NCBI GenBank assembly: GCA_003971905.1
Contig: RSEE01000042.1
Coordinates: 62,001 to 126,000 of the forward strand
Length of the DNA: 64,000 nt
Origin: Moniliella sp. 'wahieum'
Lineage: Eukaryota
Direction of reading: 5' to 3'
Shown here: piece by piece, positions 86-55,581 of the stretch
Numbering within the stretch: position 1 is the stretch's first letter
Layout: every line of letters begins with the position of its first letter
The notes under the pieces: generated by a model
What the model saw: only the letters and a program-made list of their open reading frames with translations
What the model was told of the DNA's origin: nothing
The model's database searches: none
Translations under genes and position numbers: made by a program

Positions 86-1800
86 TCACGTCGAGCATGC
101 GCCGGAACTCCGCGCGGGCGATGTCCCTCCCGGGTGTTGTAGGGGACGGTGGGGTGGTAAGGCCCGGCGGTCCGGGTGGGTGGACGCCGCGGAGGAAAGG
201 AGGGGAATGTCACCAGCAATACCATCTTCACCCACTGCTGTGGGATAGGGTTGAGCAAGGGGATCAAGGGATATCACGTACATAATCGTCCTGGAGGCGC
301 GGCTGCTCCTCCAGCCGACCCGACTCTCCTCAGCAAATGCACATCGTAAACTGTCACGATACGGTCCAACACCTCGACCCAAACACGTGACCTTTGACTT
401 GGCCCGGCAGGTCACTGTAACCCAGGTACACCCCTCGAACGGCACGTGGAGCGAGGTATTTGCCGCTGAGTTCACTAGCTTGTGTCCAGGCACGTCGATT
501 CCCACCATGCAGCACAACCCAAGCAGTGCAACCAAACACCCGCAGAGCAGACAGAGTGGGGGGTTGGCCCGTCCACAGTTCATACGGCGTCTTCCAGGCA
601 TGCGCTTTGCTGGCGAGGCGGTTGTGAATGTATCCGGCGTGCGTCGCAGCATAGGGCCAAAACCGCCCGGCAACTGGGCGTGGTGCATGAGACAACGGGA
701 CAACTTCTCAATCTCTTGGTTCATTCGCTCTGCGACGGCGTTCCCTGTGGATTCTTGAGTAGGAGAAGCTGTCAAAAGGCAACCTGAACGAGCAGCCCAT
801 GTCTTGACCTCATTAGTCCATAATTCGCCTTGGTCCACACGTAATTCTTTTGGATGTTTTTCTGTTTCGCGATGAATTAAGGTAGCCCACTGAATGAGGC
901 AGGGTGCAGCACTGGCCTTGTCCTTCAACGGCCAGACCCAGGTCATGCCACTGTAATTGTCCACCACGACAAGAATGTAGTGCCAAGGTACCTTGTGCTG
1001 CAAAGCATCTGGCTCATTCCAAGGGCCCACCACATCGGCTGACACCAGGTCGAGGCGGGCCAAGATGAGACGAGAATCATTCCCCCGCCGGGCTCGCGAC
1101 TTGGCAGTACGGCAAACATCGCAGGAAGAAAACTCAGGAAACGAAGGCGGCCAAGATCCCCCTTTGCTGGCCGTAGACGTGTGTTTCACGGCCTCAGCGC
1201 CGGCATGGCCAAGCCGAAGGTGCCACAACCAAGCTGACGCGCGCGTCAAGTCGGGGGCTGGGTCTCAGCTACAGGCCGAGGAAAGAGTTTGTCCCGCAAC
1301 TGGTCATCAGGATCATTCAAAGAGTCATCCTCAGTCTCCGATAGAATAGGGAACGCTAATACTGCACCGTCCACCTGGCAGTCATCCGTGCACACTACCA
1401 TTTCCGCTCTGGGGTAGGTGCCCTTCAGTGGAACCCCGAGGGAAGTGCCATTCTTGGTGAAAAACACCACCTCATGGTCCCGAAATAGCGTACTCCCACC
1501 CGTGGCTGCCACTCCTTGGGTACTGAGGAGATTAGTAATGAGGTCAGGTACCAGCATAACCCCATTGAAGTGAAGCGCCTCCCACTTGCGCTGGGATGGA
1601 TCATATTGTAGGAGGCGTAAGGTGCCATTCACCCCAGCGACCGGCAGTTTCTGCCCCCTGCAGTGACTACCGAGGTGGGACGGGAGGGAGGCACGAAGTT
1701 TTTCGCCAAGCTTGCATCATTGACAAGGCGATGGGAGGCTCCGCTGTCAAAGATAAATTCAGCCGAGCGAGGTGTGGAGCAAGGTGGAGATGGGATGTTG
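86..1800 (-). CDS. pol: Copia Pol N-terminal part: aspartic protease and integrase (frameshifted in this sequence)
   Basis: AEFIFDSGASHRLVND at ~1763-1716; LWHLRLGH...CDVC; LDLVSADVVGP, VVDNYS, LRVDQGE, NAVAERMNQ; FWPYAATHAGYIHNR and LRVFGC in the shifted frame 354-695. Confidence 0.92.
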
Positions 1801-1907
1801 TTGTAGAAGAAGAAGGGGGGGAAAGAAGGGGCGCGGTGGGCGAGTGATAAACAATGCGCTCAACAAGTCCTCTGCGAGGATAATGAGCGCCTCACCCCGC
1901 GCGACCC

Positions 1908-3035
1908 CTATTCGATATCATCAAACCCCGCGGCAGGCTGCCCATCCTCCTCTGAGACGGAGAGGTCCATTACCGTTAAGCCGTGCGCCAAGGCTTGAAG
2001 CACACGCGCAACAGCATGCTGCTGTGGGGGCGCACGGTTGGTATTCGTGTTCCGTCCTGCCCCAGGGAGGGTGCGATTCCATCCTGACGTACCACGGGTA
2101 GAAATGCGGTTGTCCTGACGCGGCGCCGGGCAGTTGGCAGCGATATGTCCAGGCTGGCGGCAATTCCAGCAGACAGCCGCAACCCCCATCGCTCGTAGCT
2201 GCGCTGCCAGAGACATGTCTGCGTTCCCAAGCAGTCCCGTGGTCCCCGAATTAACGGGAGGGGTAGAGACATCAACAGCCAAAGATTCAACCGTAGGTAC
2301 CGAGATGGACGCAATCCGGTTAGATTCCATGACGAAGTTGGCCCGGGCCAACGACTGCAAGTCCCCCAAGACAGAATTGACGTGTGCCACGGTCACACGC
2401 TGTCCGGGAGGTAGCCCCGCGAAAATCAGCGGCCGATACGAATCACCACGCCGGAAAAGGGCTTCCAAACTGGACATCACACGTGCAGGGTCCCAGGTGG
2501 AGTACCCCAAGAGGGTCAGAACTTGGATGGAATCGAGCCAGCGCGTCAGGGCCTTAGAAGCCGGTTCTGCATTGGGATCCCATTCCGTCTGGTGCACCGA
2601 CAGCTGTAGTTCAGAGACGCTGGGCGTAGAAAGACGTACTTCCGCGAACAAGCACGACAAGAAGTCCGGAACCGAGTCAAGAATCCCGGGAGACGTTGTG
2701 GTCGCGAGGCGCGAAATGTAGGACGCGAGGGCAGGCGACACCAGCGTCATCAGTTGCGCAACGATCTGAGAGTGCACCCCCGGCGGCACCTCCATTGTTC
2801 CGGCCAAGATCGAAGCAAAGTCGTGATAAATGATGGCCAAACGAGTACGGAGGCCCTGCAGCCAGCGAAGAACAGCCAACGGGTCATTTTGCTCGGGACC
2901 ATGCACCAGAGGTGTCAGAGGCGAGGAAGCAAAAGCACGCGTCATACGCTTCGCCAATGTCATAACATCGAAATTCATGTGTCCCTGGACTAGACGCGGT
3001 GCATCCACCCACTTGGGCTGCTCCTCGATAGTCAC
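1908..3035 (-). CDS. gag: Copia Gag with CCHC zinc knuckle
   Basis: CWNCRQPGHIAANC knuckle near the C-terminus of a 375-aa ORF upstream of the protease. Confidence 0.9.
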   Translation of the reverse strand: MTIEEQPKWVDAPRLVQGHMNFDVMTLAKRMTRAFASSPLTPLVHGPEQNDPLAVLRWLQGLRTRLAIIYHDFASILAGTMEVPPGVHSQIVAQLMTLVSPALASYISRLATTTSPGILDSVPDFLSCLFAEVRLSTPSVSELQLSVHQTEWDPNAEPASKALTRWLDSIQVLTLLGYSTWDPARVMSSLEALFRRGDSYRPLIFAGLPPGQRVTVAHVNSVLGDLQSLARANFVMESNRIASISVPTVESLAVDVSTPPVNSGTTGLLGNADMSLAAQLRAMGVAAVCWNCRQPGHIAANCPAPRQDNRISTRGTSGWNRTLPGAGRNTNTNRAPPQQHAVARVLQALAHGLTVMDLSVSEEDGQPAAGFDDIE

Positions 3036-3841
3036 CGTGCGAGCAGACGGGGCCCCTCGCTGATACGCTCCACAGAAGGGACGGTCACCGACGGCAAAGC
3101 AGCCGACGGGTCATGAGCAAAAGCCATACCACTGTCAGTCGGAACAGAACCTTTCGGGGTGCCCAACAGGTCAATACGGTGCACTGACTCAGTACTGACT
3201 CGAGCGGTCAGAAGCTGAAGTTCATCGTCAGATTCGGTAGTTGGAGCTGGGTCCTCTGGGTCGAGGAGCATGTCGCGCATGGCACGACGCTTCTGAGCAA
3301 CACGATGTTTGGAAGCCTTATTGTCCTCGTACAGTTTCCAAGCATTACGCACTGCCTTGAGATGGCGAAAGATTGCCTTCTGCAAGTCCTCAAAGGTGGA
3401 GAAGCGATGAGACTTGGTATAAAAGACGTAGGCAACATAGAAGTCGGTCGGTGTGAGCAAGAAGTTTTCGCCACCATGGCCCTTATTGTAGTCGGTAATG
3501 ATATCAGCCACAATAGAGTCCTTGTCTGCCACTGCAGAACCAGGGGCCGGGGAGGCTATGCCCTTCCCCGGGATACCCCAGCGGCGAATGGTAGGAATGA
3601 CGTCCTGGATGAAATCGGCAGCGACATCCACGTCAACGTCCCACAGGATGGTGTTCAGTCCAGACCAAGCACCAATCGTGTGCTTGATGCGAAAAGCCGG
3701 CCATTTCGCTGTCTTGCCAGGAGCCATCCCGTCTTGAGAGTTGGGGTTAAACTCGCCACGACGAACATACGCTTCCACAATGTCATCAGGCGAGGAAACC
3801 GGGTGCGCAGAATGCGCAGAGGCAGAAGATAAGGGCGACAT
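3032..3841 (-). CDS. Copia ORF1 or N-terminal part of Gag (269 aa, no recognisable domain)
   Basis: Open frame from the ATG inside the PBS; its TGA overlaps the GTG of the next ORF (GTGA at 3035-3032). Confidence 0.65.
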   Translation of the reverse strand: MSPLSSASAHSAHPVSSPDDIVEAYVRRGEFNPNSQDGMAPGKTAKWPAFRIKHTIGAWSGLNTILWDVDVDVAADFIQDVIPTIRRWGIPGKGIASPAPGSAVADKDSIVADIITDYNKGHGGENFLLTPTDFYVAYVFYTKSHRFSTFEDLQKAIFRHLKAVRNAWKLYEDNKASKHRVAQKRRAMRDMLLDPEDPAPTTESDDELQLLTARVSTESVHRIDLLGTPKGSVPTDSGMAFAHDPSAALPSVTVPSVERISEGPRLLAR

Positions 3842-3845
3842 AACC
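3833..3845 (-). promoter_or_regulatory. Primer-binding site, half-tRNAiMet (Ty5/copia) type
   Basis: Minus strand CA|GGTTATGTCGCCC immediately follows the LTR and resembles the GGTTATGAGCCC internal-tRNAiMet PBS; its ATG starts ORF1. Confidence 0.75.
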
Positions 3846-4088
3846 TGCTAGACTGCAGGGGAAACGCTATGGGCAGCACGAGAGATAAGCTTCAAGGCGT
3901 GCAAGAAGGCAGGGCAGTTAGCCACAAGTCCTTCAAGCAAGCTCAAGGGAAGAAGATAAGAGTCAAGCAAGCAAGTCGGAACAGACAAAGGGGTGGCGTT
4001 GGCCACGCAAGGTTCGAATCACCCGAACCAGCGAGCATCACGATCCATTGGAGAGAGTGCAGGTGAACCCTAGCACTACCCTCTAGCA
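3846..4088 (-). repeat. 5' LTR of the copia element (243 bp)
   Basis: Plus strand reads TGCTAGA...TCTAGCA (7-bp terminal inverted repeat, TG...CA) and directly abuts the PBS. The partner LTR is not in the window. Confidence 0.8.
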
Positions 4089-30155: not shown

Positions 30156-31668
30156 CTACTCTGTGCCGGTCCACTCGTAGCGCAAGCGGGACTGCAAGTC
30201 CTCGTTGCATTGGCTACGCGCCCGACTACCGAGGGGGTACATCCGCTCCCCCCGCCCCCCGAGGGGGTGGACGGAGGACACCGCACCGCTCCGGGCCGAA
30301 GTGGCGCCGTAATCTTCTTGTTGCGCATCATGGCCAGTTCAAGCGAGAGCATGTAGAGGTACTGGCCATTGGCTCTTCGAACGCATCCGTGTCCGTGTCC
30401 GTGTCCAAGTCTGAGTCCAGGTCCGGGGCGGTGCTCGTGTTCGCGTCCGTGTTCGTATCCGGATCCGTGTCGACGCAGCGCCGTCCCGCCCCCAGCCCGC
30501 TCCAGGCCATGGCCAGGGTTTGGGCCAGGATCAGGATGGCGGTGGGGGAGAGAAACGAGTGCGGCGTGTGTGGCGCGGGGAAGAGACGGTGCAGGGTGAA
30601 GGAGGAGGGGGGAGGCAAGGTGAGGCGGGTGTTGTCGACGACGAGGATGGGATGTGGATGGGGATGAGAATGGATGTGGGTGTGGGTGTGGGTGTGGGTG
30701 TGGGAGGGAGTGCAAGGATGTACGAGCGGGGGGGGAAGATGGGTAGCTGAGTCGGCTTGTATGGGCCTGGTGCTGAACCTGGACCGGGACCTGCACCTGG
30801 ATTTGGACCTGGACCTAGACCTGGACCTGGACTTGGACCTGGGGCGGTGTTGGACGTGGAAGTGGTGCTGAGTGTGGGCAGGGCCTCTGGATCGGGAAGA
30901 GCCCTCGAGGGTTCAACGTGTGCAGGGGTGCGGTCCATGCTGGGATTGTAGTTCGATCGAGCAGGGTGGGAAGTGGTACGACAGTTAGAGCACGAACACG
31001 AGCACGAGCAAGAGCAAGAGTAAGAGTAAGAGTAAGAGTAAGAGCAAGAGAAACAAGAGGATACCAATGAGATGTCCCTGTGGTGGCCAGGACGGAAGGA
31101 GGAAGCGGGGGGATGTTCCCGGACCCGCTCCTGCTCCTGCTCCTGCTCCCACTTCTCCTTCGTCTTGGCCTTGGCCATGTCCTTGGTCTGGGCCGTACTC
31201 TCCACCTCCTGCGACCAGGACGAACTACGTTCGTGGCTAGTCTGCCTACTCAGTAGCGGAGCAGCCGGTACGCGGGCGGGCATCGGGGCCACGGACAACC
31301 CACGGTCCCTCTGCCCTCTCCATCCCACTTCCCCTTCCCCCTCCCCTTCCCCTTCCCATCCCCTTTCCCTTCCCATTCCCTCTCACGCCCGATGCAGCGA
31401 CCTGGGCCTGATGGGGAAGACGAGGGATGCCTCTTGGTCAGGTAGCGTGTGTGCCAGCGGGGGATGGGTCTCGACGGCCGGGACAGTGACAGTGACGGTG
31501 ACGCAGACTGTAGCAACGGTAGCACGTGCGGGAGAGCAGGGGAGGAGCATGCGTGCGGGTGGCGCGGGGGAGGAAGAGGGGATCAGGCCCAGAGGGGTGG
31601 GCCGTGACGGGGAGGGTAACTCAGCCAGGGGCACAGACGGCACGGGGAGGGTAGTCGGGAAGGTAATG

Positions 31669-35154: not shown

Positions 35155-35759
35155 ATGGCGAACCAGGTACGTGGTCCTTCTGGTCCGAAGGCGCGGGCGC
35201 GGGCGCGAGTGGGAGCAGGCGGGAGGCAGCCTGCGCTTTCTCCTCGAACGGCAAACGGCAGGAGGTGGGGGGACTAACCTTGTCTTTGGATACTCTTTTT
35301 GTTGTTCTTCTTCTTGTTGTGTGTGTTTCGCAGGACCCACCTAGGTTAGAGTACGCCGAGCCCTCTCCATTGACGACGGGGAGCTGATTGAAGTCAAGCC
35401 CAGTCGGGTGGGCCGAGTACTATGCTGCGATCAAGCAAATTTCGCCCATCGAGGACGCCAAGAACTTTACCAAGATGCCCTGTGCGGCGAGCTCGATGTT
35501 GATGGGACTCTTGACGGGCGGGTCGGTGTTTGGGATTACGTTTATTACCGGCAGGCCGTTGCCGTCGGCGATGCGCTGGAGTGTGTCGGGCTTTGCGTTT
35601 GTGTCGATTGCGATGCACTACCAATGCGAGCGCGACCGGATCCAAGAACGTAACCGCATGCAGTTCATTGTCGACCAACTCAACCAGGCTAGTCACGGCA
35701 AACGCAACCTCACAACAGGGCACAATGCCGTGGCTGGTCAGCGGCAAGAGGGCGAGTAA
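35155..35759 (+). CDS. COX20: Cytochrome c oxidase assembly factor Cox20
   Basis: Exon 1 ATGGCGAACCAG, intron 35167-35333 (GTACGT..CTAAC..CAG); KMPCAASSMLMG, two TM helices, C..R..E...M pattern of Cox20/FAM36A. Confidence 0.85.
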
Positions 35760-36318: not shown

Positions 36319-39300
36319 ATGACGGACGTTTGGCTCGCGCGGTGCCTATGCCCCCTTCCAGCTGCTGGCGCCCGTGGATGCGGATGCGGAGGCTGCTGAC
36401 GCGACGGTGATCAGTGCTCATCCTGCCTCTGCCCATCCCTCGGTCGATGTGGCGACGCTCTTGTCCCGCTGTCCTTCGCTCGCTACTCCGCACTCGGACT
36501 ATGCTGCGCATGCGGCGTCAGCTCCCGTTCCAGCTGCCCATTCTAGTGCGCCACCGGTTGTGCTTGCGCGTGCGGTGGAGGATGCAACGGTGCTGGAGCT
36601 GCGGTGGCTGCCTTCGCGCCTGACTGTGCCGGTGTCCTCGACGTCGGTCGCTTCGGCAGGCACTTGGCATGTGCCCTACCCTTCCTCTTCCCCACGCTTA
36701 TTTCAGTTCCCTGCACCGCTCTTGCCCGGCATGGCGATCTTCTTTGACGCCGAGTGCTACGCTGCAAGTACTGGCGGTGACCCTGACGGGCTACCTGTAC
36801 CGCCTTGCCTTTACCTCTCCTGATTACTTTTCCCCCGATGCGCTTCCTGATGGCGCGCTCTCTGAGTTCTGCATTGCCCATACCGATGTGATTGACACGT
36901 ATGGTCAGATCTTCTCGCGTTGTCTCCCTGAGCAAGTCCATGTTGTCGACCCCGGTCTGGTGCTCGTGACCTGCACCGATGGCTCGATTGTCAAGCTGGA
37001 ACAGACCCGCTCCTACCATTCTTCGTCCGGGTTTGAGAGTACGTGTTTTTCTTTCTTTGTGCTCTCTCTTCTTTCTTGCGGGATCATGTGCGCTGACTGA
37101 TTCATGGCATGGACTGATGAAGATTGATGATTGATAATTGGTTGTTTTTGTTTCTTGTTTCCACCAGGCTTTTGGTCCGAAAGCGTTCTTCACCCAGGCT
37201 CGGCACTTGGCAGTCTGGCCCGCATCTTTTCTCGCAAGCCTGCGTTGGGGGAGCAGGACGCCACGTCGCCCTTGCGCGCTCTGAGCGTGACGAGCTACAT
37301 TGTAAAGAGGTGACACCCTTGGCGTTTGCCGTTTCCAAGGACCGCAAACTGCGTGTATGGGATCTGATTTCCAATACGGTGTCCGAGTCCTCGGGCTGCC
37401 CACCAGTGCCCGTGCCCACCTCTCCCCCGAGGGAGGTGGGGATGGATCGGACGGCACAAGCCACGTGTTTGGACCGCAAGCCAAGCCGCTCGTTTCCGTC
37501 CTTGGCACCTCTGCTTCGACGTTGCATCTCTTGGTCCATGTGCCTGCTACGGGTGGTGCGAGCAACTTTTTCGCGCTGTATGAGATGCAGGTGGTGCAGG
37601 CCAAAGGCCATGGCCCGAGCAAGGTAGGAAGCATCGAGCCGATCTGGACGGGCGAGTGTGCGCCCGGTACGTGTTTGTCCGAGGTGGAGCTGCGTGACGT
37701 GGCGTTGGTGCAATTTGGCTCGGCGGGCCTGCGTCTATGGGCAGTATGGGACGACTCGGGCAACCCGCTGGTCAAGACGATCACAGTTTTGGAGGAAGTG
37801 TACCACGAAGCAGACACTAGCACCTTGTCCATTGCGGCCAACTCGGGTCCTGCCTCTTGGTCCACGGTTCACGACGCGCGCTCCTTTTTGCCTCTGCACG
37901 GCAGTGCGTTCGAGCTCGCCGTATCTGCCGTCCCGGACGGGCGGGAAGACTTGGCCGACTTTTTCTTGGAGCGCATCTTTGATGCCGGGCGCTTTAGTCA
38001 GCGGTCGATCGAAGCTGCGCTGGCCAAGTACGAAGAGGGACTGTTACGCGTGCTGGGACCGGACACGCTGCCGCCCGAGTTGCAGGAGAGCATGGCGTTT
38101 GATACGTTGCGCGACCACTGCTTTTAATGTGGTAGGCTCGTCGATTGAGCTGGAAACCGATCCGGTCACGGGCAACTCGCTCGTACCCCAGTACATGTCG
38201 GCGTTGCGACGCGAATGGATGCGGTTCGTGGGGTACATTGAGAGTTTCCAATCTGCGGCCCGGTGGCCACTTGGGTTTGTGCGGCCTTCGCTGCCGCACC
38301 CGCGCAGCGCGCTGCGCAGCGCGCCTGCGCTCTTGACGCGAGACTACTTTGTCACGGCGGCGGTGGAGGATGCCGGGTCAGCTTGGCTCCGGATCGCAAG
38401 CCAGATCGATGCGGGCTACCCGGACAGTTCTCCGTTGGCGCGCAGCGGCGCAATCGTGAAACGGCACAGGCTGCAGCCGATGAAAAGGCCTATCTTACCA
38501 GCGCATCTCATTCGGCCAGCCTTTCGCGCTCGCTCTTGGCCCGTTCCCCGTTAGAGGAGAATGGTGTTCCTCTGTTTTGTTGGAGTCGACCGTCTCGTTG
38601 GCCCACAGCACGTCCGCACCCCACCTCCTTACGTTTTGGCGTGAGTTGGACGCTCGCTTTTCGGGCTTGGTCACCCAAACTGCGGAAGATCAAGTGCGGC
38701 AGTTTGGGACGAAACGCTTACCGAGGTGGTGACCGACGACGCGTTCCGGTTTCTGGCCGAGACGTGTGACAAGATCCAAGGAGTGGAAGCGGCTCTGACC
38801 GCCTGGGCCGACTTGCTGCGAGACCAAGGTGGACAGGACGATGTACCGACGTCGACCGTCTTGGCTGCGAGCCAAGTGGACTCGCTCTTGCTCACCGACT
38901 CGCTGACGACAGTGCTGCGAGAACGCCAACGAAGCGCAGGCCTGTTGGTCTTTGTGCTAGCTTGTTTGTGGGTGTCGAACGGGTTGGAGGGGTTGGTGCC
39001 TTCCTTGCCACGCTTGTTCTCTCGTGCCCTATCCACACTCCAAGCCACCCATGCCCTGCTCGAAGCCAGTTCCCTAGCGGGCGCACCCAACATTGCGCCG
39101 CCCGCGGCGTTGTTGCCAGGGGAAGAGGATGTGGCAGATCAGCTAGGCATGATGCACGTCTCGTCTCCGATAGCGACCGTGCCCGGTCCGGCGGTCCGGC
39201 ACTGTCTCCGTTACACTATGCTGTACAAAAGTCCTTGCGGCGCGTCGTTTGTTGCCGTCGTGCCCGACCCTTGCTCGGCTTGGACTGCCGATTGATTCTG

Positions 39301-41450
39301 GGCAGCAACACGTTGGCATTGTACAGTTACTTGGTCGGGGGGGGACGAGGCGACTGCGCCAGCGCACCCGCAACCCGTCTTGACTGAGTCCCTTCGCTCC
39401 TAGCCCAACAATGGCTTCAAGCAGGCTACACTTCGGCTGCCGATCAATTCTAATGGCCTTCCCCGCCTCGCTTGCTGGCACGTACCTCTCTGCCGTATCG
39501 CTGCTGTTCCACGACGAGGCGGAGGAGGAAGCGGTGGCGCGGCGAGGTGACATCCAAGTTTGTGCGGTTGGCACGGCGTTGAGTTCGCTCGATGCGTTGG
39601 CGGACGATGCGAGTGGGCTGTTGGCGGTCATACCTCCTCCAGTGGCCAATTTGGTTCCCTATGACGCTTCGGTCGCACTGTACTTTTCCACTTGTCCAGC
39701 CTCTTCTTGGCTGGAGCGTCCGGCCGAGGTAGCGTGGTCGGGTGCCAAGGCGCTGGCTCTGCTCCATGCTGAGCGAAACAGGAACTGATCGAGGCTGGGG
39801 GCATGACGAAGCAGGCATTGAAATCGGTCGTGTCCGATTTGTCCTTTAGCACGTTCCGTGCGCAAGTGCAGCTACGGGACTTTGCGGGGGCGTATCAGAC
39901 GATCATGGCGAGTGGGGACAAGTCGTTCAAGGGGGAGTGTATTCATTCTCTCGTCACGGCCATGTGCGAAGCTGGGGAGGCAGCCACGCTACTCCGGTTC
40001 AACTTTTCGGGCTTGCAGGCCGAAGTGGAAAAGACACTCAACTTTAAAGCGCGCAACTCCAACCCGTTTGCCACGCCCAACTACTTTCATCTGCTCTACT
40101 CGTACTTTCTCCATCGGGGCGACCTCAAAGCCGCAGCAGCCGTCATGTACCAGCATGCGCATCACCTCGCCGAGCAGTACGAGCGACAAGCTGCCACGTC
40201 GGCCCAGGTCGCCATGGAGTTCGCCTCGACTGCCGCGGCGCAAGCGGAGAGCCTGCTGTGCTCGCTCACTGTCCTCGCTCTCGTTCCCAGCCACGACGCG
40301 TGGTTTGCCCATGCCACCGTGGTGGGTGCGAGCTCGGTGGGGGGTGCGCCCTCGCCCTCCCCCTCGGCTTCTCGGCAGGTGTGGGAGGCGACAGAGAGCG
40401 ATCGGGTGGAGCGACGGGGTGCGCGACACGTGACGCAGTACGTGCCCGAGTCAGAGTTTTGTCCGACCAGTGGTCCTTTGGAACTGGTGCGAATCGAGGA
40501 CATTCGCAAGGAACGTGCGTTGCTCTGTGCACGGTTGGACTTGGCCAAGCAGTACCCTGAGCTGGCTGCGCCGCACGCGGCGTTAGCGCCGGCAGATGCG
40601 GTGGCGCTGTATGTGCGCGCCGAATCGTTTGATGCGGCGCTGCGGCTGGCGCGGGTGCTGGAGGTGGATACGAAGCTGGTGTTCCAAGCGCTGACGCTGC
40701 GTGCGATCAAGTTGAGTCTGCTAGGCCAAGGACGGCAGGCGGACCTGCGCGCAGCCGGGATCGAGGCGGACACAGCGAGTGGCACGGCATTCGTCAGCTG
40801 CGGGAAGAAGTGAGACGCAGCAGTGGGACGAAGCGCGGTTCTTGGTCGGCTCGGAACTGAGCAGCACGTGGACCGGCGCGCCAGAAGACAAGGCGTGGCG
40901 GTACCTGCGTCTACTGCTGAGCAATACGACGGAAGAAGAGCGAACGGGGTACTACCAAGTGGTGCTGTCGCATGCGCTGGACCAAGGAGTGGAGGCTGAA
41001 GCGGTGCTGCCGCGCTGGCTGACCTCGTGGTTTGCCCTCAACAAGCCCGACCTGTTGATCCGGAGCTACATGCGGGTGGGGTGGGTGCAGCGTGCGCTCG
41101 AGGCGGCCTGGCTGGTACAAGCGCCGCTGGGCACGGCGTCGCTAGCGCTGGGTTCGGACCAAGCGGCGTTGGCAGCACGAGCGACGGACGCGTTTGTGCC
41201 GTACACGTTGCTGGACGAGCTGGTGCACGAGGTGGAGAACCCGGACCCGCTCGTGCCCGTGTCGGGGGGGCGGGGGCAGGGGTGGATGTGCTGGCGACGC
41301 GGACGCTGGCGCAGCATGCGCGCGGCAGTGGCGGAGCGTCTGGAGCGGCTGCGCGCTCCAGGAGCGGCGCCAGGCGGCGTGGGCGCGTGCGAAACGCGAG
41401 GCGTGAGGCGGAGGGGTGAAGCGGCCGAGGGCCCGATGGAACGACGCGGA
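36319..41450 (+). CDS. NUP160: Nucleoporin Nup160/Nup120
   Basis: ~5 kb coding region; N-terminal propeller with DRKLRVWDL; C-terminal GLQAEVEKTLNFKARNS..PNYFHLLYSYFLHRGDLKAAAAVMYQ, LPRWL, PDLLIRSYM, VPYTLLDEL; intron ~37040-37167. Ends approximate. Confidence 0.9.
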
Positions 41451-41896
41451 TTGATCGCATGGCGGGTGGTGTTCTGGCGCCACGGGTTGTATTTTGTAGG
41501 GCGCAGAGGGGAAGGAAACGACATAGGCGTGTCACAGCGCACACGCACAGAGACCGTGCGATGGGTGAGGGGAGTGTGGTGATGCATGATGCCGGCGATG
41601 CCCCGGTCGATCGCTCGCCGATCGCGACACTGGCGCACTGCGGCTGCTGCGGCTGCGTGCGCTTGCCCGATGCGGCAGGCCGAATCAGGCAGCGATTATC
41701 ACACGCCCATCACTGCCCCTCATCACCCGCCGCCACCACTGCCCCCGTGCCCGCCGAACGCCCAGGCGGCCACCCCGCATCGGACTTGGGCGCCCCCCCG
41801 CACGGCGGCGGTGTGGCAGTCGGCTGCCCCATCCTCGAACCCTCGCCGCACCCCGCCGCCTCCGTCTCTACCCCACCACCCCCCCCTGCGCCCGCC

Positions 41897-43525
41897 ATGC
41901 GCAGCCACCTCGCCCTCGCCCTCGCCCGCGCCCTCGCCTTCACCGCCCTGCTCGCGCCCCTCGCCGCCGCCCTGCCCTCGCCCGCCGACGCGCTCCTGCC
42001 CCTCGCCGACCGCGAGCCCCGCGGCGTCCAGGCCATCCGCCGCGTCTCCCTCGCCCCCCGCTCCAACAAGGACCTCTACCCCCCCCCCGCACCGACCCCT
42101 TCTACCTCCCTCGCCCCAGCAACATCAGTCTCTACAAGCCCGGCGACGTCATCCGCTCCCGCTCCGTGTCATCACGCCCGAGTACAAGGTCTCCGGCGCC
42201 GGCCGCACCTCCCAGATCCTCTACCCACCACCACCAACACCCAGGGCCACCCCTCCGCCACCGTCACCACCGCCATCGAGCCCGCCAAAGGCTCCCCGCC
42301 CCAAATGATGTCCTACCACATCTGGGAAGACTCGACCAACCGCGACTGCGCCGCGTCCTACACCATCCTTCTCGGTAGCGAAGCCCCCAACGTCTTGGTC
42401 CTCGGTCCGTATCTGCCTCTTTATCCTTTCTCCTTTCTCCTTCATGCCTCTCGCCCCTCCAGTTGGGGGAAGAAATGGGGCTGCTGCTGACCGACAGATA
42501 TGATGCGTTGCTGCCTTGCTGCCTTGCTTGTCTGCTACCTCCACAGGCGACGATGTACCGGTCTGGTTCGACTTTTTGTTGTCCAAGGGCATCACCGTTG
42601 TCATACCCGACTACGAGGGCCCCAAGTCGGCGCTGTTTGCAGGGTTCCAAGCCGGCTATGCCATCCTCGACTCGGCCCGTGCCGTGAAAAACTACCTCCA
42701 TTGGCCCGCCGACGCCAAGGTGACCATGACGGGCTATTCCGAGGGTGCGCACGTCACCTGCTGGGCGGCCAACTTGGCCCCCTCGTACGCTCCTGAACTG
42801 AACATTGTTGGTGTCTCGCACGGTGGCACGCCGATTGATATGGAGCTGACGTTGCGTCACTTTGACAACACCTCCTTCTCTGGCTTCACGCTTGGAGGCA
42901 TGCACGGTATGATCGCCGCGTATCCCAAGTTCAACCGTACCATCACCCAGCATGCGCAACAACGCGTCCTCAATGACCTGGCCACCATTTACGCGCCGCC
43001 AGTCTGCCACGCCATCTTGCGTGGCCCACAATTTGCCAATGTTCCGTACATGGAGATGCTCAACCTGCCCAGCGGGGATCCCTACAACGACCCGGTCGTG
43101 CGCGCCGTGCTGAACCGCGAAACAATGTGGAGCAACAAGTCGTCGGTGGGAGTAGGGTACCCCAAGTTCCCACGGATGATCTACCAAGGCCGGCACGACG
43201 ATGTGATTAGTTTTGATGCGGTGCAGGCCTATGTCACCCAGCAGTGTCAGCATGGTGCCAACATCCAATTCAACATTTACGAAGCCAATGCGCACACGGC
43301 GCCGCAACTGGTGATGGTGGCGACTTGAACGCCATGGCGTTCACCCTGCAAGTACTCGGCATTGATGGACAAAAATTTGTCCCTGTGCCCTGTGGCTCGC
43401 CTACGCCTACTCTGCTCAACTTGATCACCTGGGGGATCGACGAGTTGTTGGGCGGCGACATTCTTGGTGCGTTAGCAGCGCTCTGGAACGAAGGCCAGGA
43501 AGTTCTGGGCAGCATTGGGTTTTAA
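41897..43525 (+). CDS. Secretory lipase (LIP / CalA-like family)
   Basis: Signal peptide; QILY.TTNTQG..ATVTT, SYHIWEDS..CAASY, VVIPDYEGPKS, GYSEGAH, YAPELNIVG..GGTP, HDDVI; intron 42405-42546. Confidence 0.92.
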
Positions 43526-44596: not shown

Positions 44597-46691
44597 TCAG
44601 AACCACATGGATACGGACGCGCTCTGTGCACAAGCCAACCCCACGTGGAAACCCGTACAATCCGGACCATCCGTACAATCCGTACAATCCGTACAATCCG
44701 TACCAGCAGTACAACCAATCAGAAGAGTCAGTATAGTCCGTTTCCTCGTCCAGTCAGTTGCGCAGAGCAGATGCGACGTGGCCAAGCAGGCGGCACGCAC
44801 GATGGACTTCTGCTCGGAAGCAACGTACCCGTTCGCAACTCTTGAGCGCATGCCACCAGCGCGGGGCAAAAATAGCAGATCGCCCGGGTACAGCGTGCTG
44901 ACTCGTGCTTCGGACGCAAGCATCACGAGTGGGGAGACGGTGGGATCAGGATCAGGATCGGGATCAAGACCAGGATGCAAATGAGGATCGGGATCGAGAT
45001 CGAGATCGAGAGGCGGAGAAAAAACGTCAAAGGTAGCTGTGTTTCCCTGCGGGGTAAGTGCGCCACCTCGGTTTCGCGTGGGGAGGAGCGATCCAAACGC
45101 GTTTGGAGCCGACGAGTTGAACAAAGCAATTATAAAACGGGTCGGTATGAGCTGGGGAGAGGGTACGTTTTGGACCCAGCCACGCATTGACCACGACCGT
45201 TGGCTCGCCCGCTGGGTCCAGCGGAGGCGCGTACCGGCACCGCGCACACTGGTCCACTGGTAGCGGTGTGGGGCACGCACATGCGCCCGAAGGCCCGGGC
45301 GGTAAGGCGTACACCACGTCTGGCACTACAATGTCTTTCCATAGCGCGGGGAATTGGCTCAACAGATCGTACTGCGCCAAGTAGCATACCTTGTCGTCCG
45401 ACCCATCTGGCTCATTTGGCTCATTTTGCCCATATGGCCCATCAAGCCCATTTGACCCATCCTTCCCATCTGGCCCACGTGACGAAGCACCCGACGAGTG
45501 TGCCTGTGGCAGCGGGGGGCTACGTTGCCCCGCTTTTCTTGCGCTGGTGTATCCGGGCACGGGGCAGGAACAAGGGTAGACGGTGGGGGGTGGTGTGCAT
45601 CCCATCCGGCGCAATGCAAAAACCGAGCAAAGTCCATGACCTCTTGGTGCCATTGAGACGAGGTATAAGTCGTGCCCACTTCGACAGGCACGAGCCTAGC
45701 TGTGCCAGCTACGTGGCGCAAGTAGTGTGCGTTGGGCCACTTGTGTACCGCGGCCAGGCGCGTGCGAATCCCCGCACGATAAATGCGTGCTCCCACCAGC
45801 GCTCGTGATGCCCTTGCCCTGCTTGGGCTTTGGCCTCGGCCTTGGAATTGGGATTGGGAGTGGGAGTGGAATTGGGAGTGGGGTGGGATTGGGATTGGTA
45901 GGCGGAGCAGGAAGGCGAGGAAAAGGGAAGGTAAGAAGTTCAATTCGGGAATGGGCAGCAAAGGCAAGTGGGAGCTGATCCGTCTTGTTTTTTCCTTCCT
46001 TCGTGCCGTTTTCGTTTGCCTTGGCTTGGGCCCGGCGAGGCGGGTAGATCCAACGAAGGAGAGCAAGAAGAGGAAGGAGAAACGGATGAGCCAACTGGTC
46101 CACCGTCCCCCTCTTGCCTCCCTTGCCTCCCTTGCCTCCCTTGCCTCCCTTGCCTCCCTTGCCTCCCCATGCTCCCTTGCTCATGTGTACCTTGCGTAGG
46201 TTGGCTCTCTTTCCATGCCACGCCTTGGCTCGCCTCGTGGCCCGTAACAGGCCATCCATGGGCCTGATGAACGGGCTCGGGGTCGGCATGGTATTGCGCC
46301 TCGGGGAGCGAGAGCGTGGACCCAGGCAAGAGCAAGAGACAGAGCCAGAGCAAGCTCCAGAGCCAGGCAAGCGTTGTTGTAGCCAGGCGACCATGGCGAG
46401 GATGTGGTCGTGACGTGGTTCGTGGTCCGCTTGCCATGCGGGGCACCCGAGACGATCAAGGCGGTATCCAGGACGTGAATGACTTGTACCACACTGTTTC
46501 CGTATCTGCCCGTCGTACCCGTCTTGCACGTCGTGCTTGCGTGCTTCAGGCGGGCAGGATAGCGCACTTGCATCAGGCGGGTGCGGGTGCTCGCTTAGTT
46601 CAAGCGGGTGCGGGTGCTCGTTTGGCTCAGGACGCTGCGGTGGGAGGGACAGGGCCAGGTCCACGGCCCAAGCCAGCGCAACGTCAGTCAT
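44597..46691 (-). CDS. JmjC-domain protein, JMJD5/KDM8-like
   Basis: RLVPVEVGTTYT, YLAQYDLLSQFPAL, NAWLGPKRTLSPAHTDPFYN (HxD), VGSKRV, PGDLLFLP..WWHA; intron 44828-44624 gives last exon SASVSMWF*. Confidence 0.92.
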
Positions 46692-48598: not shown

Positions 48599-50512
48599 TC
48601 ACGGATCCGCGGGGCCAGGCGCAACGGCCGTCGCAGGCGGACTGCGTCCGGGGGAGACCAATACCGGTTGATCAGTTTCGGATTGGCATTAGGATTGGGT
48701 GTGGAATTGGAAGTGGAATTGGGATTGGGATTGGAATTGGGGTTCTGGGTGGAATTGAGATGAGATGAGGATGAGGATGAGGATGAGGATGAGGACGACT
48801 GCAAGTCGGTGCGAGTTGGGACGTGAGGGAGGTAGGGTCGGCCAGAGCCGGGCGGGTAGGGGGCTAGTGAGTCCCGGAGGAGAGGAGCTGTGCCCAAAGC
48901 GGGGGAAGTAGATCGGCTGGAAGACTGTCCCGGGAGGCCCGGGAGGCCCGGGGGGGAGAGGCGTGGGTAGAGGAAGATGTGGAAGTGGATCCCGGAGGGA
49001 CATGGACGAGTTCAAGGCAACGGACCGAGGCCGAGCGGGCTAACGGGTCCAGGGGAAACGGGTAAAGTGAGTGGGGGTGAGCTGAGCGGGCCGAGCGGGG
49101 CGAGGGAAGCACCAAGTCCAAAGTTGCCACTGGCAAAGCTACCTGCTTCACCGAGACTGTTGATGCCCGCGATACCTGGCGAAAGGAGCCCGGTAGGCCG
49201 GGGGGCGCCAGCCCGCCTAACGGGACCATGCCGAGACCGGGATTGCGCAGCTCCGAGGGCGCGAGGAAAGGGTGCCGATCGCCTGTTTGGCGGGACAGAT
49301 GGGGCAGCGGGTGAGGGTGAGGGTGGCTCAAGGACGGGTGGTGGGCCGAATGGTGAGCAGTCGGACCCATTCCCGATGCTAAGCCCGCAGGACCAGGAGG
49401 CGACATGGACCCCGTCCCGCCGCCCGCTAAGGTCCGTGACGATTTGGTGTGCAAGTTCTTTTGGCCATCTCTGTCTTGAGCACACACCCGCGTTCCGCAT
49501 CGACCATCCGACCATTGAGGAAATCTCGCGCGCTCATCGCTTCGCCACGGGTGCGAAATTTGGCAAATCCAATGATTGTGTTCGGTCCGGTTGCGCGCGG
49601 TTGGAGCACCAGGACCAGGACCAGGACCAGGACCACCAGGACCACCACCGCCAGCGCCAGCGAGTGAGGAGCCGAGAGGGCTGAGGGGCCCGAGGCATTG
49701 CTCGCTGGCCTGGGCGCATGGGCGCCGGACCGAGGGGGAAGAAGGCCTCTTCCTGGGTCTGGTTGGGCAGTGTGGGGAACTTGAGTGACGCCGCCTCGAA
49801 GCCACGGGCAAAGACAAAGTAATTGGTAACTCGCGCTCGGTAATGTCGTCGGGGAAGCCAGCGAGGAAGACGGTGGTGATCTCCTCGTTGGGGTCCTGCT
49901 TGAGCCGGTTGGGAACGGAGGTTCCGCTAGGTGCAGGGGCAGAGGCAGGGTTACCCGGACCCGGACCGGGACCAGGACCGGGCCAGGACCAGGGCCAGGA
50001 CCGGGACCGGGACCGGGAGGACAGAAAGAGGGGGTACGTTGGAGGTGGGAGGGGCCCGGGCGGAGGGATAGCCGCGGTGGGCGGGCGGGGCAGGAGGAGG
50101 CAGTGCGGATGGGGGCTTGTGCGTGGGCGGAGGTAATAGTAGTTGGGGTTGGGGTTGGGGGCGTGCGGCGGGGGGTGGGGCCCATCGGCGAGCGGGAGCT
50201 GGGGAGCGGCGGGGGCTGTGGGCTGGAGCTGCGGGGCGGCGGGGCGGGGGCGGGGGCGGGGCGAGGCGAGGTGGGGGAAGAGGTGGGCGAGGTCGGCGTC
50301 GAGGCGAGCGGGGGGGGGCATGAACGGGGCGGCGGGCTCGAAGGGGCCGGCGGGCGGAAGAGGGCGGGTGGTAGGCGGGGTAGGCGGCGGCGGGCGCGGC
50401 GGGCGGGGCGTCGGGGCGTCGAAGGCGAAGAGGTCGTTGGCGCCCCAGAAGCGGTCGCCGGGGAGGAGGCGAACTGGTGCAGCTCGCCCGTCGACGGCGG
50501 CGCAGAGGACAT
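48599..50512 (-). CDS. RRM RNA-binding protein, Whi3/Scw1-like
   Basis: EEITTVFLAGFPDDITERE..FEAA then IIGFAKFRTRGEAMSARDFLNGRMVDAERGCVLKTEMAK.NLHTK; Pro-rich flanks; stop inferred at 48599-48601. Confidence 0.85.
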
Positions 50513-52512
50513 GGCGGGGGTTAATGAGCGCGACGCGTCGGGCAGGCGCAGCAGCAAACACGCAAACACGCTAACACGGGGACTGGTGGTGGTGCGCTGC
50601 GCGAGCGTCGCCCGCAGCGCCGCGCCTCTCCGCCCGAAGCTTGGGTGCCAGCCGCGTCCCCACACCGGCCCGTGCCTCCCGCCCAGCGCGTGCGCGCGTG
50701 CCTGCGCGCGTGCCTGCCGCCCCGGGTGCGCACCGCGCCAGTGCGCGGCCATAGCACTCGCAGCCACCGGCATGTGCAGACGGCCGCACCAGCCGACTGC
50801 CCAGCCTCCCGCCAGTGCGCCAGTGCATCATGCAGCGTGCCGCCCCCAAGCCACGGCCCCTGGCTGCCCCCTGCATTCGATCCGGCGGCGGAACTGCAGG
50901 GAGGAACACGGCCTCCGTGCAGCGCGTCTGCGCTGCACTGGCCCCGCCAGCTCTGCAGCTGGCACAAGGGGGCATCATGCATCATTCATCATGCATCCAT
51001 CTTCAAGCTGCAATCTCATCGGGGCAACGATGGTCACCACTCTGTGGTTGACAATTCACATCCCATGTGACTAACATGTGACAAGGCACTTGCGCATGCC
51101 GGCCGCATCACTGCCTTACGCCCCCGTATGGCACAGCGCCCAATGTGGCCTGCGGGGTGGCTACTACTTGAGAACACGTCGCATCCCTAGTCCCTACTTA
51201 GTCCCTAGTCCCTAGCCACTAGCCACTAGCCACTAGTCTAGTCATTTCTTTTGCAAGATGCCGGGTTTTGATGATCCCGACACAGCCTTCCTCTCCATAG
51301 TGACTAGTAGGGACTCGTGAATCTGCCCCCTTTGTTTTTCTTGGGTTATGCATGGTTATGGGCAGGCAGGGTCCCGGATCCATGTCATCGACCATCTCTT
51401 GCGACGTATCAGGCGGACCATGGGGGGGCACACAACACACAAACACAACCCACCGTAGAATAGGCCCTGATCGATGGAATGCCAGTCATGGCGACGACAG
51501 AGAGCATCGTACCAAAAGTTCCACCAAGGATTAATTATCTTCTTCTGCCATCAACCAGTGCATCAACGTACAAAGGGACGCTGGACTAGGGCCCAAGTCA
51601 CAATGTCTACTGCAAGTACAAAACTAGGGGACCACCGGGTCTACGGTCGGTCAGCTGCGGCTTCGCCCCAGCCTGGTGTGCTGGTATACAATGCAGTGTC
51701 AGGGCTCTGCCTATCCTTTAATTCCACGGATGGTCGATGGTCGACGGTCGATGGCAGGCCTCCCACCGTATTATACAGACCAACAGTTCTACAATGTGCA
51801 CTGATGGATTTGGCCTGCTGACGTGGTTTCCCCCGCATGCTCATTCAGGCTTCAAGGTCCCGAGTCAAACGTCAAGCGTCAAGCTACAAGCCTCAAGCCT
51901 CAAGACGGCCAGACTCACGGTGCCCGATGCCCACTGCACGCGTCAAATCTGAGCTGCTCACTGCGGCCGTATTACGTGCTGGGGTACAAGGACTTACCGG
52001 TTACCCTACAGCGGCCACACGGTCTCGCACGTAATCTAAGAGCGAGGACCCGAGCAGGTCTCAAATCAAGGGGGGGGGGGCGGGCACAACATGCTGGTAC
52101 AGTCTGGTTTGGTATAGTGCATCAGGTATATTGAGAAATTGAGAAAAGGGTAGGGATCGAGCGGTGGCGGTACGGAGGAAGATGCGGGAGCGTGTTCAAC
52201 AGGTGGGGCGGAAGGGGTTCAATCGCTCATGATTGGTAGGTCGCCTGGGAGTGGGTTGTTAGGATAGGGGGGCGGAACGAGGAACATGGTACAAGGAAGA
52301 AGAAGAAAAAGAAAAAGGGAACGGATGATGGATGAATGGGGACCAAGCTGTTGCTCCGTCGTGTGCAGAGAATAAGAGAGAGAGAGAGAGACGAGAGAGA
52401 GAATATGTGTGAGGGGGGTAGGATGGCACGAAACGTTCTGATATGGGTGGGATGGTTGGAGGGGGGCGCAGTGGATCCGAAACACTGACTTGTAGTAGTG
52501 CGTTAGTTCAAT

Positions 52513-52812
52513 TCACTTGGTCGTCTTGATCGGTCGAATGGCAGCCTTGCAGTTGCTGCAGTTTCCCGGACTGACCAAGCGGGCGTGGGTGTGGCAGATG
52601 GGGCACTCGATTCCGCTGGGAGGGATCGATGGGAGGGAAAGCAAAGATCAGGAGTCAGGGGTTAGGGGTCAGTACGTGGTCAGTCCGGTCCATTTTGGGT
52701 ATGAGAGATAGGATGATCCGATGATGGATGGGAAGGCTCCGAGGTTACCTGTGGGCCTCGGATGGACCAATCTATAGTGGGCGGGAAGGGAGGAGGGGAC
52801 GTACAAGGCCAT
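52513..52812 (-). CDS. Putative 36-aa zinc-ribbon microprotein MAFGIECPICHTHARLVSPGNCSNCKAAIRPIKTTK (exons 52812-52805 and 52615-52513)
   Basis: CACAATGG start context, GTACGT donor, CTAAC/CTGAC branch candidates, pyrimidine tract and CAG acceptor; splicing gives an intact frame with CxxC-x11-CxxC and needs no sequence correction. Confidence 0.7.
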
Positions 52813-53005
52813 TGTGGGGAACAGCAGAGGATATGCGTTTGGGGTTTTGGGTTTTGGGTTCTGGGTGGCGTGCGAAAGAAGGAGGGAGCCAGCGAGGATG
52901 TCGTGGTGGGTCAAGCCGGGATGGAGAGATGAGAGAGAGAGAGAGAGGGAGAGAGAGATGGTGATGAGATAGCAAGCAGTGGGGGAGGGGGGTCTTGTCC
53001 CCCTC

Positions 53006-53012
53006 TTTAATA
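53006..53012 (-). promoter_or_regulatory. TATA-like box upstream of the microprotein gene
   Basis: Minus strand TATTAAA(GAGG) followed by a CT-rich leader, ~200 nt upstream of the ATG at 52812. Confidence 0.45.
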
Positions 53013-54521
53013 GGCTCTCTAGTCACATTTGCGTTTTACCACACAGCAACCCGTTAACGGATTGATGAACGCGCGCTATTGTTCCGTCGCTGCATTGTCC
53101 GAGACGAAGGCCGATGAGGTGGGAGGAGCATGTTTGCCTTGGTATGGTACTCCCACTTGTATCCTACATCACGAAAAGTACCTAACACACACACAGCAAT
53201 TGTGTATAACTCGATAGCAACAGTAGTGCTAACCAGCAACATAAGGCGCTGCTAAGGCGCTGGGTGGTGTCCGAGCGAAAGACAAAAGCAGTGTTGTGTT
53301 CTTCTCACCTTAGGGTTAACAGGGCGCCCAAAACACACAGCAGAGCACCCGCACAACACCACCTTACTATACTGATTGTGTCTGATGCGCGGCTCTGGCA
53401 CCGCCGACAGACGATGATAGTGTGGGGGGGGCATTTGTGGGACGCGGGACGGGCGGGCACGAGACGAGCCGAGCCGAGCAGAGAGAGAGTGTGGGGTTTG
53501 GGTTTTGGACGGTGAATGGCGGTGGTTGTGGGAGGATGTGAGCGGATGACCCTTCGCTGTGAATGTGAGGCCGAGGCGGCGGGGGGGCCGATGAAACAGA
53601 ATAGACGAGAGACGAGTGGCTGAGTGCCAGTGTGTGTGGTTCTGCGTTCTGCCCCGCCGCGTGGCTAGTGGCTGAGACTGCCGAGAGAGGGTGCACTGCC
53701 CCCCTGCCCCCTTGCAATCGGCACGCTCCATGCTCCATGCTCCCCTCCTTTATCAGTACTTGAACTTTCAATTCCACTCGCCCTTCCCTCGGCCACCGGC
53801 CACGCCCGATCCCGCAGCGCTTCCTGCACACTGCCCGTAGCTAACCCCTAAACCGTCAGGCGTCCAGGAGGGGGATGAAAAACAAGGGCCATACGCGCAA
53901 GATGACCAACGTAACGGACACCACCCGCGCCTGTGTGACCTGAATATGAATGGTGACAAGAAGGACATGGCAGTACAGCGCGTGAGGTTCCCCCTCCCCC
54001 GCGGTAGTGCAATTTTGTCTTCGGTCTCCGCAGACGAGCTCCCAACGCCCACTGCGAGTTGACAGAGGGACTGGCGGAGGGTTTTGTAGGGTGCGGTAAG
54101 GTGGATGAACCAATGGACAAATGGATCATACTTTGGACCTTTTCCTACAGTAGTAAGCACAGTGAACTGACCGCCGACTCGCTGGGCGACCGCACACCAA
54201 GGCTAAACGCGGGTGTTGCAGTGTACTCCAGGTTGCACTCTGTTGTTCTGACGTACCGTCTTCCGTCGGCGGCCAAGCAGCACAACTATCGATGGGACCT
54301 TGGTGCCAGCAGCCGGCGTTGGCCTTCAGCAACTCTCACTGCAGATTGGAGGATTTTCGCTAGTACTGTCGTTGTGATCGAAACGTCTAATGAGCTGGTG
54401 GGGATGTGCTTGCCGCATCCCTGCCTAACCTACCTCCTGGTCGCCGACAGAACAAGCAAAACCCCATGATGGATATACGATTGAACCAAGCAGGGTAGCA
54501 AGTGAGCTCGGGTGGTGTGGC

Positions 54522-55581
54522 TCACATGGTCCAACCGGTGTAGTCTCGCTGGTTTCCGATCTTGGGGTACTTGTGCTGGGAACCCGAACCAGCGTGTCGG
54601 ACACGGTAGATGGCCTCGCGCATGCGCGCCTCGTCGCGCTCTTCCCACGTTACCGTATCGGAGAACAAACTGGACACGACCGGTGCGGTGGATGATGCGT
54701 CCTGCGCGGCCCTTGTTCTTATACTCGATGCTCTTTGAGTGAGGGCCCTTGCTGACCCAGATCTGGTCGACAATCAAACGGGAGACATCGAGGCCTTTGG
54801 CGCGTGCGTGTTCACGCGCCAAGACAAGGGAGGACTTGATCCACTTGGCCGCGCGCTTGGGCGAGTACTGCAATTGCAAAATAGCAAATCAATCGGTTCC
54901 TTAGCCACGAGCCTGGCGAGGTGACGCAACTTCTTGTGGCTAGTACGGTGCATGGCAGTACTGTACTTGTGCTCGGGGGGAGCGTTCGGTCCGCCCCAAC
55001 GTTTGCGCAGCAACCGAGCCCGTTTCTTGGCCCACAACCGTTCCTCCGCATCCCGCTCTTCCCATCCCACCCTCTCCTGTTCCTGCTCGTTCTCCAACAG
55101 AGGCGAACCATCAACGCCGACGGCACCCAGGGCCGCGCGTCGCGACGCTCGTCCGCAGCGACCTGCTGCGCGTCGGAAGGCAGCATACCACCCAGCTTGC
55201 GCTGGCGCTCGCGCTCTTTACGGTTACGTAGATGATGCGGCCCAAGCGATCGCCGAGACGGGGTGCGATCTGGTCCGACAGCCAGCTGGGACGGGCGGCC
55301 GAGGTGTTCAGACTAGGGGGGGGGGGGGGGGGGGGGGTCAGAAGTCAGAGGGGGGTCTGGACGCGCAGGCGGAGGGGAGAGACGCACGAGCGGGCAGGAG
55401 GGCGCGAGTACGCAGACGCGAGTGCGATGGTGGGCAGGTGGCGGGCAGGCGGACAGGCACGGGGCGCATGGCCATGGCCAGGGCCGGCCGGCCAGGGCAA
55501 GGGCTGGAGCGGGCGCCATTGGGATTCGCACGGGTGGCGAGCGGTTGGGGTGGAGCGGGCGCTGGCTGGATGGAATCCCAT
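54522..55581 (-). CDS. MRPL22: Mitochondrial ribosomal protein uL22m
   Basis: HKYSTAMHRTSHKKLRHLARLVA, LQLQYSPKRAAKWI, LIVDQIWVSKG, KGRAGRIIHR; Arg/Ser-rich presequence-like N-terminus. Confidence 0.92.

Follow-up and report, generated by a model that had tools for sequence, protein, structure and literature searches.

We describe a candidate two-exon gene for a 36-residue peptide with four cysteines. It occupies 52812–52513 on the minus strand of the window (the whole 64,000-nucleotide stretch analysed here), within a gap that is poor in genes. The chances that this is a real, lineage-restricted gene for a basic, zinc-ribbon-like peptide appear to us about evenly balanced. Points in favour of the real-gene reading are that the start of the candidate resembles that of the Cox20 gene in the same window, a cluster of branch-point-like motifs precedes the acceptor, the GC content of third codon positions (GC3) is periodic in the proposed phase, the pyrimidine content dips in the second exon, the leader is free of ATG, the combination of features is rare, and the gap has room for a gene.

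The gap measures approximately 4 kb. It is bounded by the gene for mitochondrial-type uL22 (uL22m), which ends near 54525, and by an RRM-like gene on the minus strand, which starts near 50300–50800. There is space in it for one small gene, and it contains no other recognisable domain. The first-pass annotation had called the interval apparently empty, and this description agrees with a Pfam search at E≤0.01, in which none of the 67 frames of at least 38 aa across 51037–54692 gave a match. The only Rfam match over 50500–55500 was to an archaeal snoRNA model, at 29.9 bits against a cut-off of 50, and it was rejected. Downstream of the candidate, at 51185–51250 on the minus strand, the gap also contains a short tandem array of units resembling GGCTAGTG and GGGACTAG.

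Several elements can be read in order along the minus strand. A TATA-like TATTAAA occurs at 53006–53012, about 200 nt upstream of the ATG. It is followed by a putative promoter-proximal region and 5′ leader (52813–53004), which is 47% C and 23% T, contains no ATG, and includes a (CT)8 tract at 52931–52946. Exon 1 (52805–52812) is only 8 nt long, comprising the ATG at 52812–52810 in the context CACAATGGC and five further nucleotides, and ends in phase 2; the start region as a whole reads CACAATGG. The proposed intron of 189 nt (52616–52804) runs from GTACGT through a pyrimidine tract to CCCAG and contains both CTAAC and CTGAC motifs. These belong to a branch-point-like cluster of five CTRAY motifs (three CTGAC, one CTAAC and one CTGAT) at 52647–52683, located 32–64 nt before the acceptor. 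Exon 2 (52513–52615) provides the last base of the split codon, 33 full codons (P0001) and a TGA stop, and encodes the CxxC-x11-CxxC pattern together with a basic tail. Within this exon, a 9-nt tandem duplication at 52546–52563, AACTGCAGC / AACTGCAAG, in which 7/9 bases are identical, encodes the second CxxC knuckle, N-C-S-N-C-K. Past the stop, a pyrimidine-rich stretch at 52080–52512, with a (CT)n tract at 52375–52402, may represent a 3′ UTR, with limits drawn from composition alone.

The frame of exon 2 is open only from 52647 to 52516 (44 codons) and lacks an ATG. Splicing would therefore be required for it to code. Ahead of the first Cys codon, the open frame contains a single AG, that of the proposed acceptor. 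Alternative acceptors at 52484 and 52437, which lead to low-complexity products of 77 and 72 aa, were rejected. When the two exons are joined by their coordinates with a script, they yield 111 nt with a single terminal stop, encoding 36 aa with a pI of 9.25 and a mass of 3.9 kDa. The anatomy that the first-pass annotation had described, from the TATA-like box and the CT-rich leader through the start, the 8-nt exon and the 189-nt intron to the second exon, was thus recovered in full, as was its claim that the frame needs no correction.

From the observed anatomy and statistics, a course of transcription, splicing, translation, zinc binding and contact with a partner can be proposed. Transcription would start in, or just past, the CT-rich tract, and the first AUG, in the context CACAAUGGC, would open the 8-nt exon. 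The 189-nt intron would then be removed through a GUACGU donor, CUGAC/CUAAC branch sites and a CAG acceptor, and a basic peptide of 36 aa (pI 9.3) would be translated. In the segment CPIC-x11-CSNC, the four cysteines would hold one Zn2+ as the two knuckles of a minimal zinc ribbon. Finally, the Lys/Arg-rich tail would most likely touch nucleic acid or a larger complex.

The start of the candidate is built in the same way as that of a genuine gene in the window. The Cox20 gene, at 35155–35759 on the plus strand (Pfam Cox20, E=7.6e-20), has a 12-nt first exon, ATGGCGAACCAG. Its start at 35155 reads CACCATGGCGAACCAG directly before the donor GTACGT. The intron that follows is 167 nt long, contains ACTAAC and ends at a CAG acceptor (35333), beyond which the reading continues in frame into the Cox20 ORF. 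Cox20 and the candidate both have the CAC(A/C)ATGGC context and the GTACGT donor; in each, a CT(A/G)AC branch motif lies about 50–60 nt ahead of the CAG acceptor, and the leader is rich in pyrimidines. They differ in the length of the first exon (12 nt in Cox20 compared to 8 nt) and of the intron (167 compared to 189 nt), and their products are unrelated. The splice consensus applied to the candidate is that of fungi in general, and the local Cox20 intron supports it. Splice-consensus data were also looked for in passages of PMC3879195 and were not found. The Cox20 reading includes an in-frame TGA at 35385–35387, which is probably an assembly error, or else a sign of a different acceptor.

The sequence around these signals has several distinct features. 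The ATG at 52812 is the first after 215 ATG-free nucleotides, the next one upstream being at 53028, and ATG spacings this long or longer make up 7% of the ATG gaps on the minus strand. The start context CAMMATGGC occurs 7 times in the window compared to 3.0 expected, a modest enrichment, and the Cox20 start is one of the other six. At least one CTRAY motif is present in 12% of 62-nt windows; four or more within 62 nt are found nowhere else in the 64-kb window when both strands are scanned. The pyrimidine fraction falls to 0.49 in exon 2, within a sense-strand domain of about 1 kb where it is otherwise 0.6–0.8. The window has just two (CT)/(GA) tracts of at least six units, and they lie on either side of this domain, which also coincides with the highest GC skew of the window. 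The domain extends about 430 nt beyond the stop, and the composition changes sharply below ~52050. In addition, the putative 5′ leader contains a 7-nt tandem repeat (GTTTTGG on the plus strand, CCAAAAC on the minus strand, 4.3 copies) at 52837–52866, downstream of the CT tract and ahead of the ATG.

How often such features arise by accident bears directly on the first alternative, which holds that the candidate is a chance open frame in intergenic or promoter DNA. According to this explanation, an ATG happens to lie beside a donor-like hexamer in the C/T-rich stretch, and a 44-codon frame happens to carry accidental Cys pairs, one of them made by 9-nt slippage, without being translated. We regard this as somewhat unlikely. 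Paired CxxC motifs are not in themselves rare: in the six-frame translation, CxxC-x8-20-CxxC gives 12 matches at 8 loci, compared to a mean of 1.3 in 200 Markov shuffles, and at least two of these loci are, by eye, simple Cys-rich repeats (46115–46195 and 30981–31055). The exact CxxC-x11-CxxC frame is found once in the window, in the candidate, compared to 0.08 expected. Gene models of this kind are also readily produced. To pass a mini-exon filter, a model needed a purine at -3 of its ATG, an exon no longer than 30 nt, a strong donor followed by a CTRAY branch motif and a YAG acceptor, and a product of at least 30 aa; the filter finds a mean of 5.6 models per window in 150 shuffles, compared to two ATG/donor loci in the real window. 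These two loci are the candidate and the Cox20 start, so that the only other locus with such start architecture is a real gene, which argues against chance.

When 20,000 upstream regions are simulated while the acceptor is kept in place, 2.8% of them provide an in-phase ATG (purine at -3) with a strong donor. This fraction is 0.75% when the exon may not exceed 30 nt, and 0.4% when a branch motif is also demanded. In the real sequence, the ATG/donor pair of the candidate is the only one within 600 nt upstream that combines a purine-at-(-3) ATG with a strong donor and joins the exon-2 frame in phase. Each feature alone is no more than chance would supply, and it is the combination that is rare. 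Motif and anatomy together are expected in roughly 0.002–0.02 chance cases per 64-kb window, with the GC3 periodicity uncounted, which speaks against a chance frame, as does the position of the branch-motif cluster exactly where a branch site is needed. This expectation is small for one window but not when very many windows are scanned. Since the candidate was selected from such a very large scan, rare coincidences are to be expected somewhere, which favours chance. Moreover, the second knuckle lies within the 9-nt duplication, and replication slippage could make a CxxC by accident.

Two kinds of coding statistics were obtained for exon 2, and they do not point in the same direction. The GC content at codon positions 1/2/3 is 0.42/0.58/0.82, a GC3 excess of 0.318 that is in phase with the proposed frame. 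An excess of this size or larger is seen in 0.1% of 973 other windows of the gap and in 0.05% of 2189 stop-free windows of 33 codons, so that exon 2 is an outlier among gap windows, and this weighs against a chance frame. The mean excess in 101 windows from Pfam-supported coding stretches is 0.205. By hand count, the excess of exon 2 is about 0.29 without its four TGC codons and about 0.21 without two short repetitive patches. The GC3 periodicity is largely independent of the motif and the anatomy.

Codon usage offers no such help, which is a further point in favour of a chance frame. Measured against the exon's own composition, the codon-usage log-odds are -4.9, within the lowest 11% of the 101 real coding windows. 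Measured against the gap background, they are -0.16, compared to 8–13.5 in three of four pieces of neighbouring genes and 2.9 in the fourth. The antisense frame of the candidate, which shares its third positions, scores 8.8 against the same background. In sum, the GC3 periodicity is strongly coding-like, and the codon-usage log-odds give no support.

The predicted peptide, read from the translation, contains CPIC-x11-CSNC followed by a Lys/Arg-rich tail. It thus has four potential ligands in two CxxC knuckles, with a spacing inside the range of 8–20 residues. The best Pfam scores were to DZR (PF12773, 16.0 bits, cut-off 27.3), DZR_2 (PF18912, 14.7–14.9 bits, cut-off 27) and Zn_ribbon_3 (PF13248, 14.3–14.4 bits, cut-off 27), and the peptide reached the gathering threshold of none of these zinc-ribbon models. 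With its x11 spacing, it did not match Rpb12/RPABC4 (PF03604) among Pfam matches at E≤10, and none of the ribosomal zinc-ribbon families (eS27, uS14/eS29, eL37, eL43, eL40 and bL32) appeared at that level. The mismatch to Rpb12 and the ribosomal zinc-ribbon proteins, which had been suggested from the sequence, therefore held. The RanBP2/NZF family has the pattern W-x-C-x2-C-x10-C-x2-C, with a conserved Trp and Asn. It was rejected, since the peptide gave no match to PF00641 at E≤10, has x11 spacing, and carries no Trp before its first Cys. Lipopeptide pheromone precursors of basidiomycetes are about 35–40 aa long and end in a CaaX prenylation motif; the peptide ends in ...IKTTK and has no Cys in its last 14 residues, and this assignment was also rejected. 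An AlphaFold2 prediction from the single sequence, with no alignment, gave a mean pLDDT of 61, a pTM of 0.27, one helix and no hairpin, a model too weak to use.

Judged from its sequence, the peptide would belong to no described family among those tested, and in kind it would be a minimal stand-alone zinc ribbon. The first-pass annotation had named a match to a described small protein family as the outcome that would count against its microprotein; such a match was looked for and none was found. Its microprotein reading survives in part. The gene anatomy and the zinc-ribbon layout of the cysteines are present as described; the Pfam scores remain below threshold, the codon usage is unsupportive, and no homologues were found. 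Because of this codon usage, the 9-nt duplication under the second CxxC and the lack of homologues, a chance open frame stays a live alternative. The roles suggested in the first-pass annotation (a regulator that senses metal or acts in redox, or a binder of nucleic acid) and its long upstream regulatory region are conjectural.

Several known systems resemble the candidate to different degrees. DZR, DZR_2 and Zn_ribbon_3 resemble it in having about 30 residues and two CxxC knuckles, the first of them CPxC, with a separation of about 11 residues. However, these are mostly prokaryotic domains or portions of larger proteins, whereas the candidate would be a stand-alone spliced gene of a fungus. 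In a protein-language-model comparison, the nearest look-alikes were unnamed clusters of 32–39 aa, followed by PhnA/YjdM-like and rubredoxin-like ribbons, with scores of 0.88–0.92. The archaeal DUF7129 and DUF7837 proteins, the one-domain zinc-finger micro-proteins of haloarchaea, most of which have no known function, are likewise stand-alone proteins of a few dozen residues with a single four-Cys ribbon. DUF7129 aligns to residues 3–28 of the peptide at 14.6 bits, compared to a cut-off of 30. These proteins belong to another domain of life, and no sequence kinship to the candidate is detectable.

Rpb12/ABC10-alpha and the ribosomal zinc-ribbon proteins are, like the candidate, small, basic and eukaryotic, with one four-Cys ribbon. 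In fungi, their genes often have an intron directly after the ATG. Rpb12 has the spacing C-x2-C-x13-C-x2-C, and Rpb12 and the ribosomal ribbons as a group have spacings of x13–x15, lengths of 50–90 aa and universal conservation, whereas the candidate has x11 spacing, 36 aa and no homologues. The best match in the PDB was the LysW amino-group carrier protein (PDB 5k2m chain E), a zinc ribbon of 53 aa with a first knuckle of the form (I/V)ECP(I/V)C. LysW is acidic, serves as a carrier in prokaryotes and ends in a tail of the EDWGE type. This tail is missing in the candidate, and the alignment, at E=0.54, covers the knuckle only; nothing in the PDB sequence search with the peptide fell below E=0.5.

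Searches for relatives of the candidate gave no homologue, which again counts in favour of a chance frame. A word search with the 44-codon frame found no candidates among proteins of 24–77 aa and no scoring sequence among proteins of 78–2000 aa. A phmmer search against 1.84 billion representatives returned three matches, all of them to multi-repeat proteins that fit '...LSPG.CS...' and lack the four cysteines, and these were set aside as artefacts. A degenerate two-knuckle DNA pattern matched a single metagenome locus (L001), which was rejected as an orthologue, being part of an unrelated protein of about 600 aa on an AT-richer contig. At 1300–1700 on its plus strand, this locus encodes at least two CPICH-x10-C-x2-CK ribbons with the x11 Cys spacing of the candidate, and more CxxC pairs follow a kinase-like N-terminal part. 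A literature search for zinc-ribbon microproteins in fungi returned no papers, and a looser search gave nothing relevant among the matches listed.

Blank protein searches weigh little here, because gene callers rarely predict genes whose first exon is only 8 nt long, and because few members of the lineage have been sampled. The window comes from a fungus that resembles Ustilaginomycotina, and the thin sampling can be seen in the best matches of a Nup120/160 piece from the window, which are 69% identical in the closest sampled relative, 48% in Tilletiaria anomala and 35–39% in named Malassezia species.

A second alternative accepts the intron and the transcript and denies that the frame makes a stand-alone product: the RRM-like gene would instead have a long, spliced 5′ leader with the frame as an upstream ORF, or the frame would belong to a non-coding RNA. 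This we consider quite unlikely. The RRM-like gene does lie on the same strand, about 1.7–2.2 kb downstream, the pyrimidine-rich domain continues for about 430 nt beyond the stop, and the evidence for the splice signals is better than that for coding. However, a leader that reached some 2 kb would be long in so compact a genome, the composition shifts sharply below ~52050, and the in-phase GC3 periodicity and strong start context point to selection on translation of the candidate frame. It is very improbable that exon 2 belongs, as the last exon, to a larger gene with its upstream exons obscured by introns or 1-nt indel errors: although indels break every gene checked in the window, so that the stops bounding short frames are not fully reliable, the 67 frames of at least 38 aa in 51037–54692 have no Pfam match, the exon shares words with no longer protein, the frames upstream are low-complexity and non-coding-like, and the ATG/donor pair suits the acceptor phase without correction.

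If the candidate is a real gene, it is one that standard annotation would not see, with its 8-nt first exon, its product of 36 aa and its lack of homologues. It would also mean that microprotein genes with mini-exons go unnoticed in basidiomycete yeasts, which are poorly sampled. Moreover, a stand-alone four-Cys ribbon of this size would offer a simple system in which to study the origin of minimal zinc-binding folds and their binding partners. A more specific version of the real-gene reading, which we advance tentatively and consider rather improbable, is that this is a young, lineage-restricted microprotein gene near its birth. C/T-rich intergenic DNA would have gained a promoter-proximal ATG and an intron, the 9-nt duplication would have completed the second CxxC, and relatives would be confined to a narrow clade of Ustilaginomycotina. 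If so, a metal-binding fold would have originated de novo in a fungus. If the candidate is not a real gene, it becomes a calibration case, in which a full-looking anatomy and a textbook motif have come together by chance at about 0.002–0.02 per 64-kb window. At this rate, such calls need transcript or conservation evidence.

Pfam-supported genes in the window include a copia-like gag/integrase, an SDR, Ric8, Nup120/160, a secretory lipase, a cupin, Cox20 and the mitochondrial-type uL22. Most genes here had been described as frameshifted at first reading, and breaks were indeed encountered in uL22m, the RRM-like gene and Nup120/160, in addition to the in-frame TGA in Cox20. By reading, single nucleotides have to be corrected in uL22m (54525–55300, minus strand) near 54885 and 54650, and in the RRM-like gene (49400–49900, minus strand) near 49825. 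Nup120/160 (37306–41579, plus strand) is spread over at least three ORFs with Pfam hits, including an overlapping pair in different frames. Indels appear to occur in the assembly at about one per few hundred bases, and such frequent 1-nt indels make any short frame less certain.

Other features were noted elsewhere in the window. A homopolymer of about 25 C at 55313–55340 on the minus strand, just upstream of the uL22m coding region, is a likely hotspot of assembly length errors. A copia-like retrotransposon remnant occupies 89–3847 on the minus strand, with gag_pre-integrs and rve in 89–1264 and zf-CCHC in 1911–3110, in separate frames. The secretory lipase gene (42504–43325, plus strand; Pfam LIP, E=1.6e-42) has an unbroken frame of 274 aa and is among the few long frames with no obvious break.
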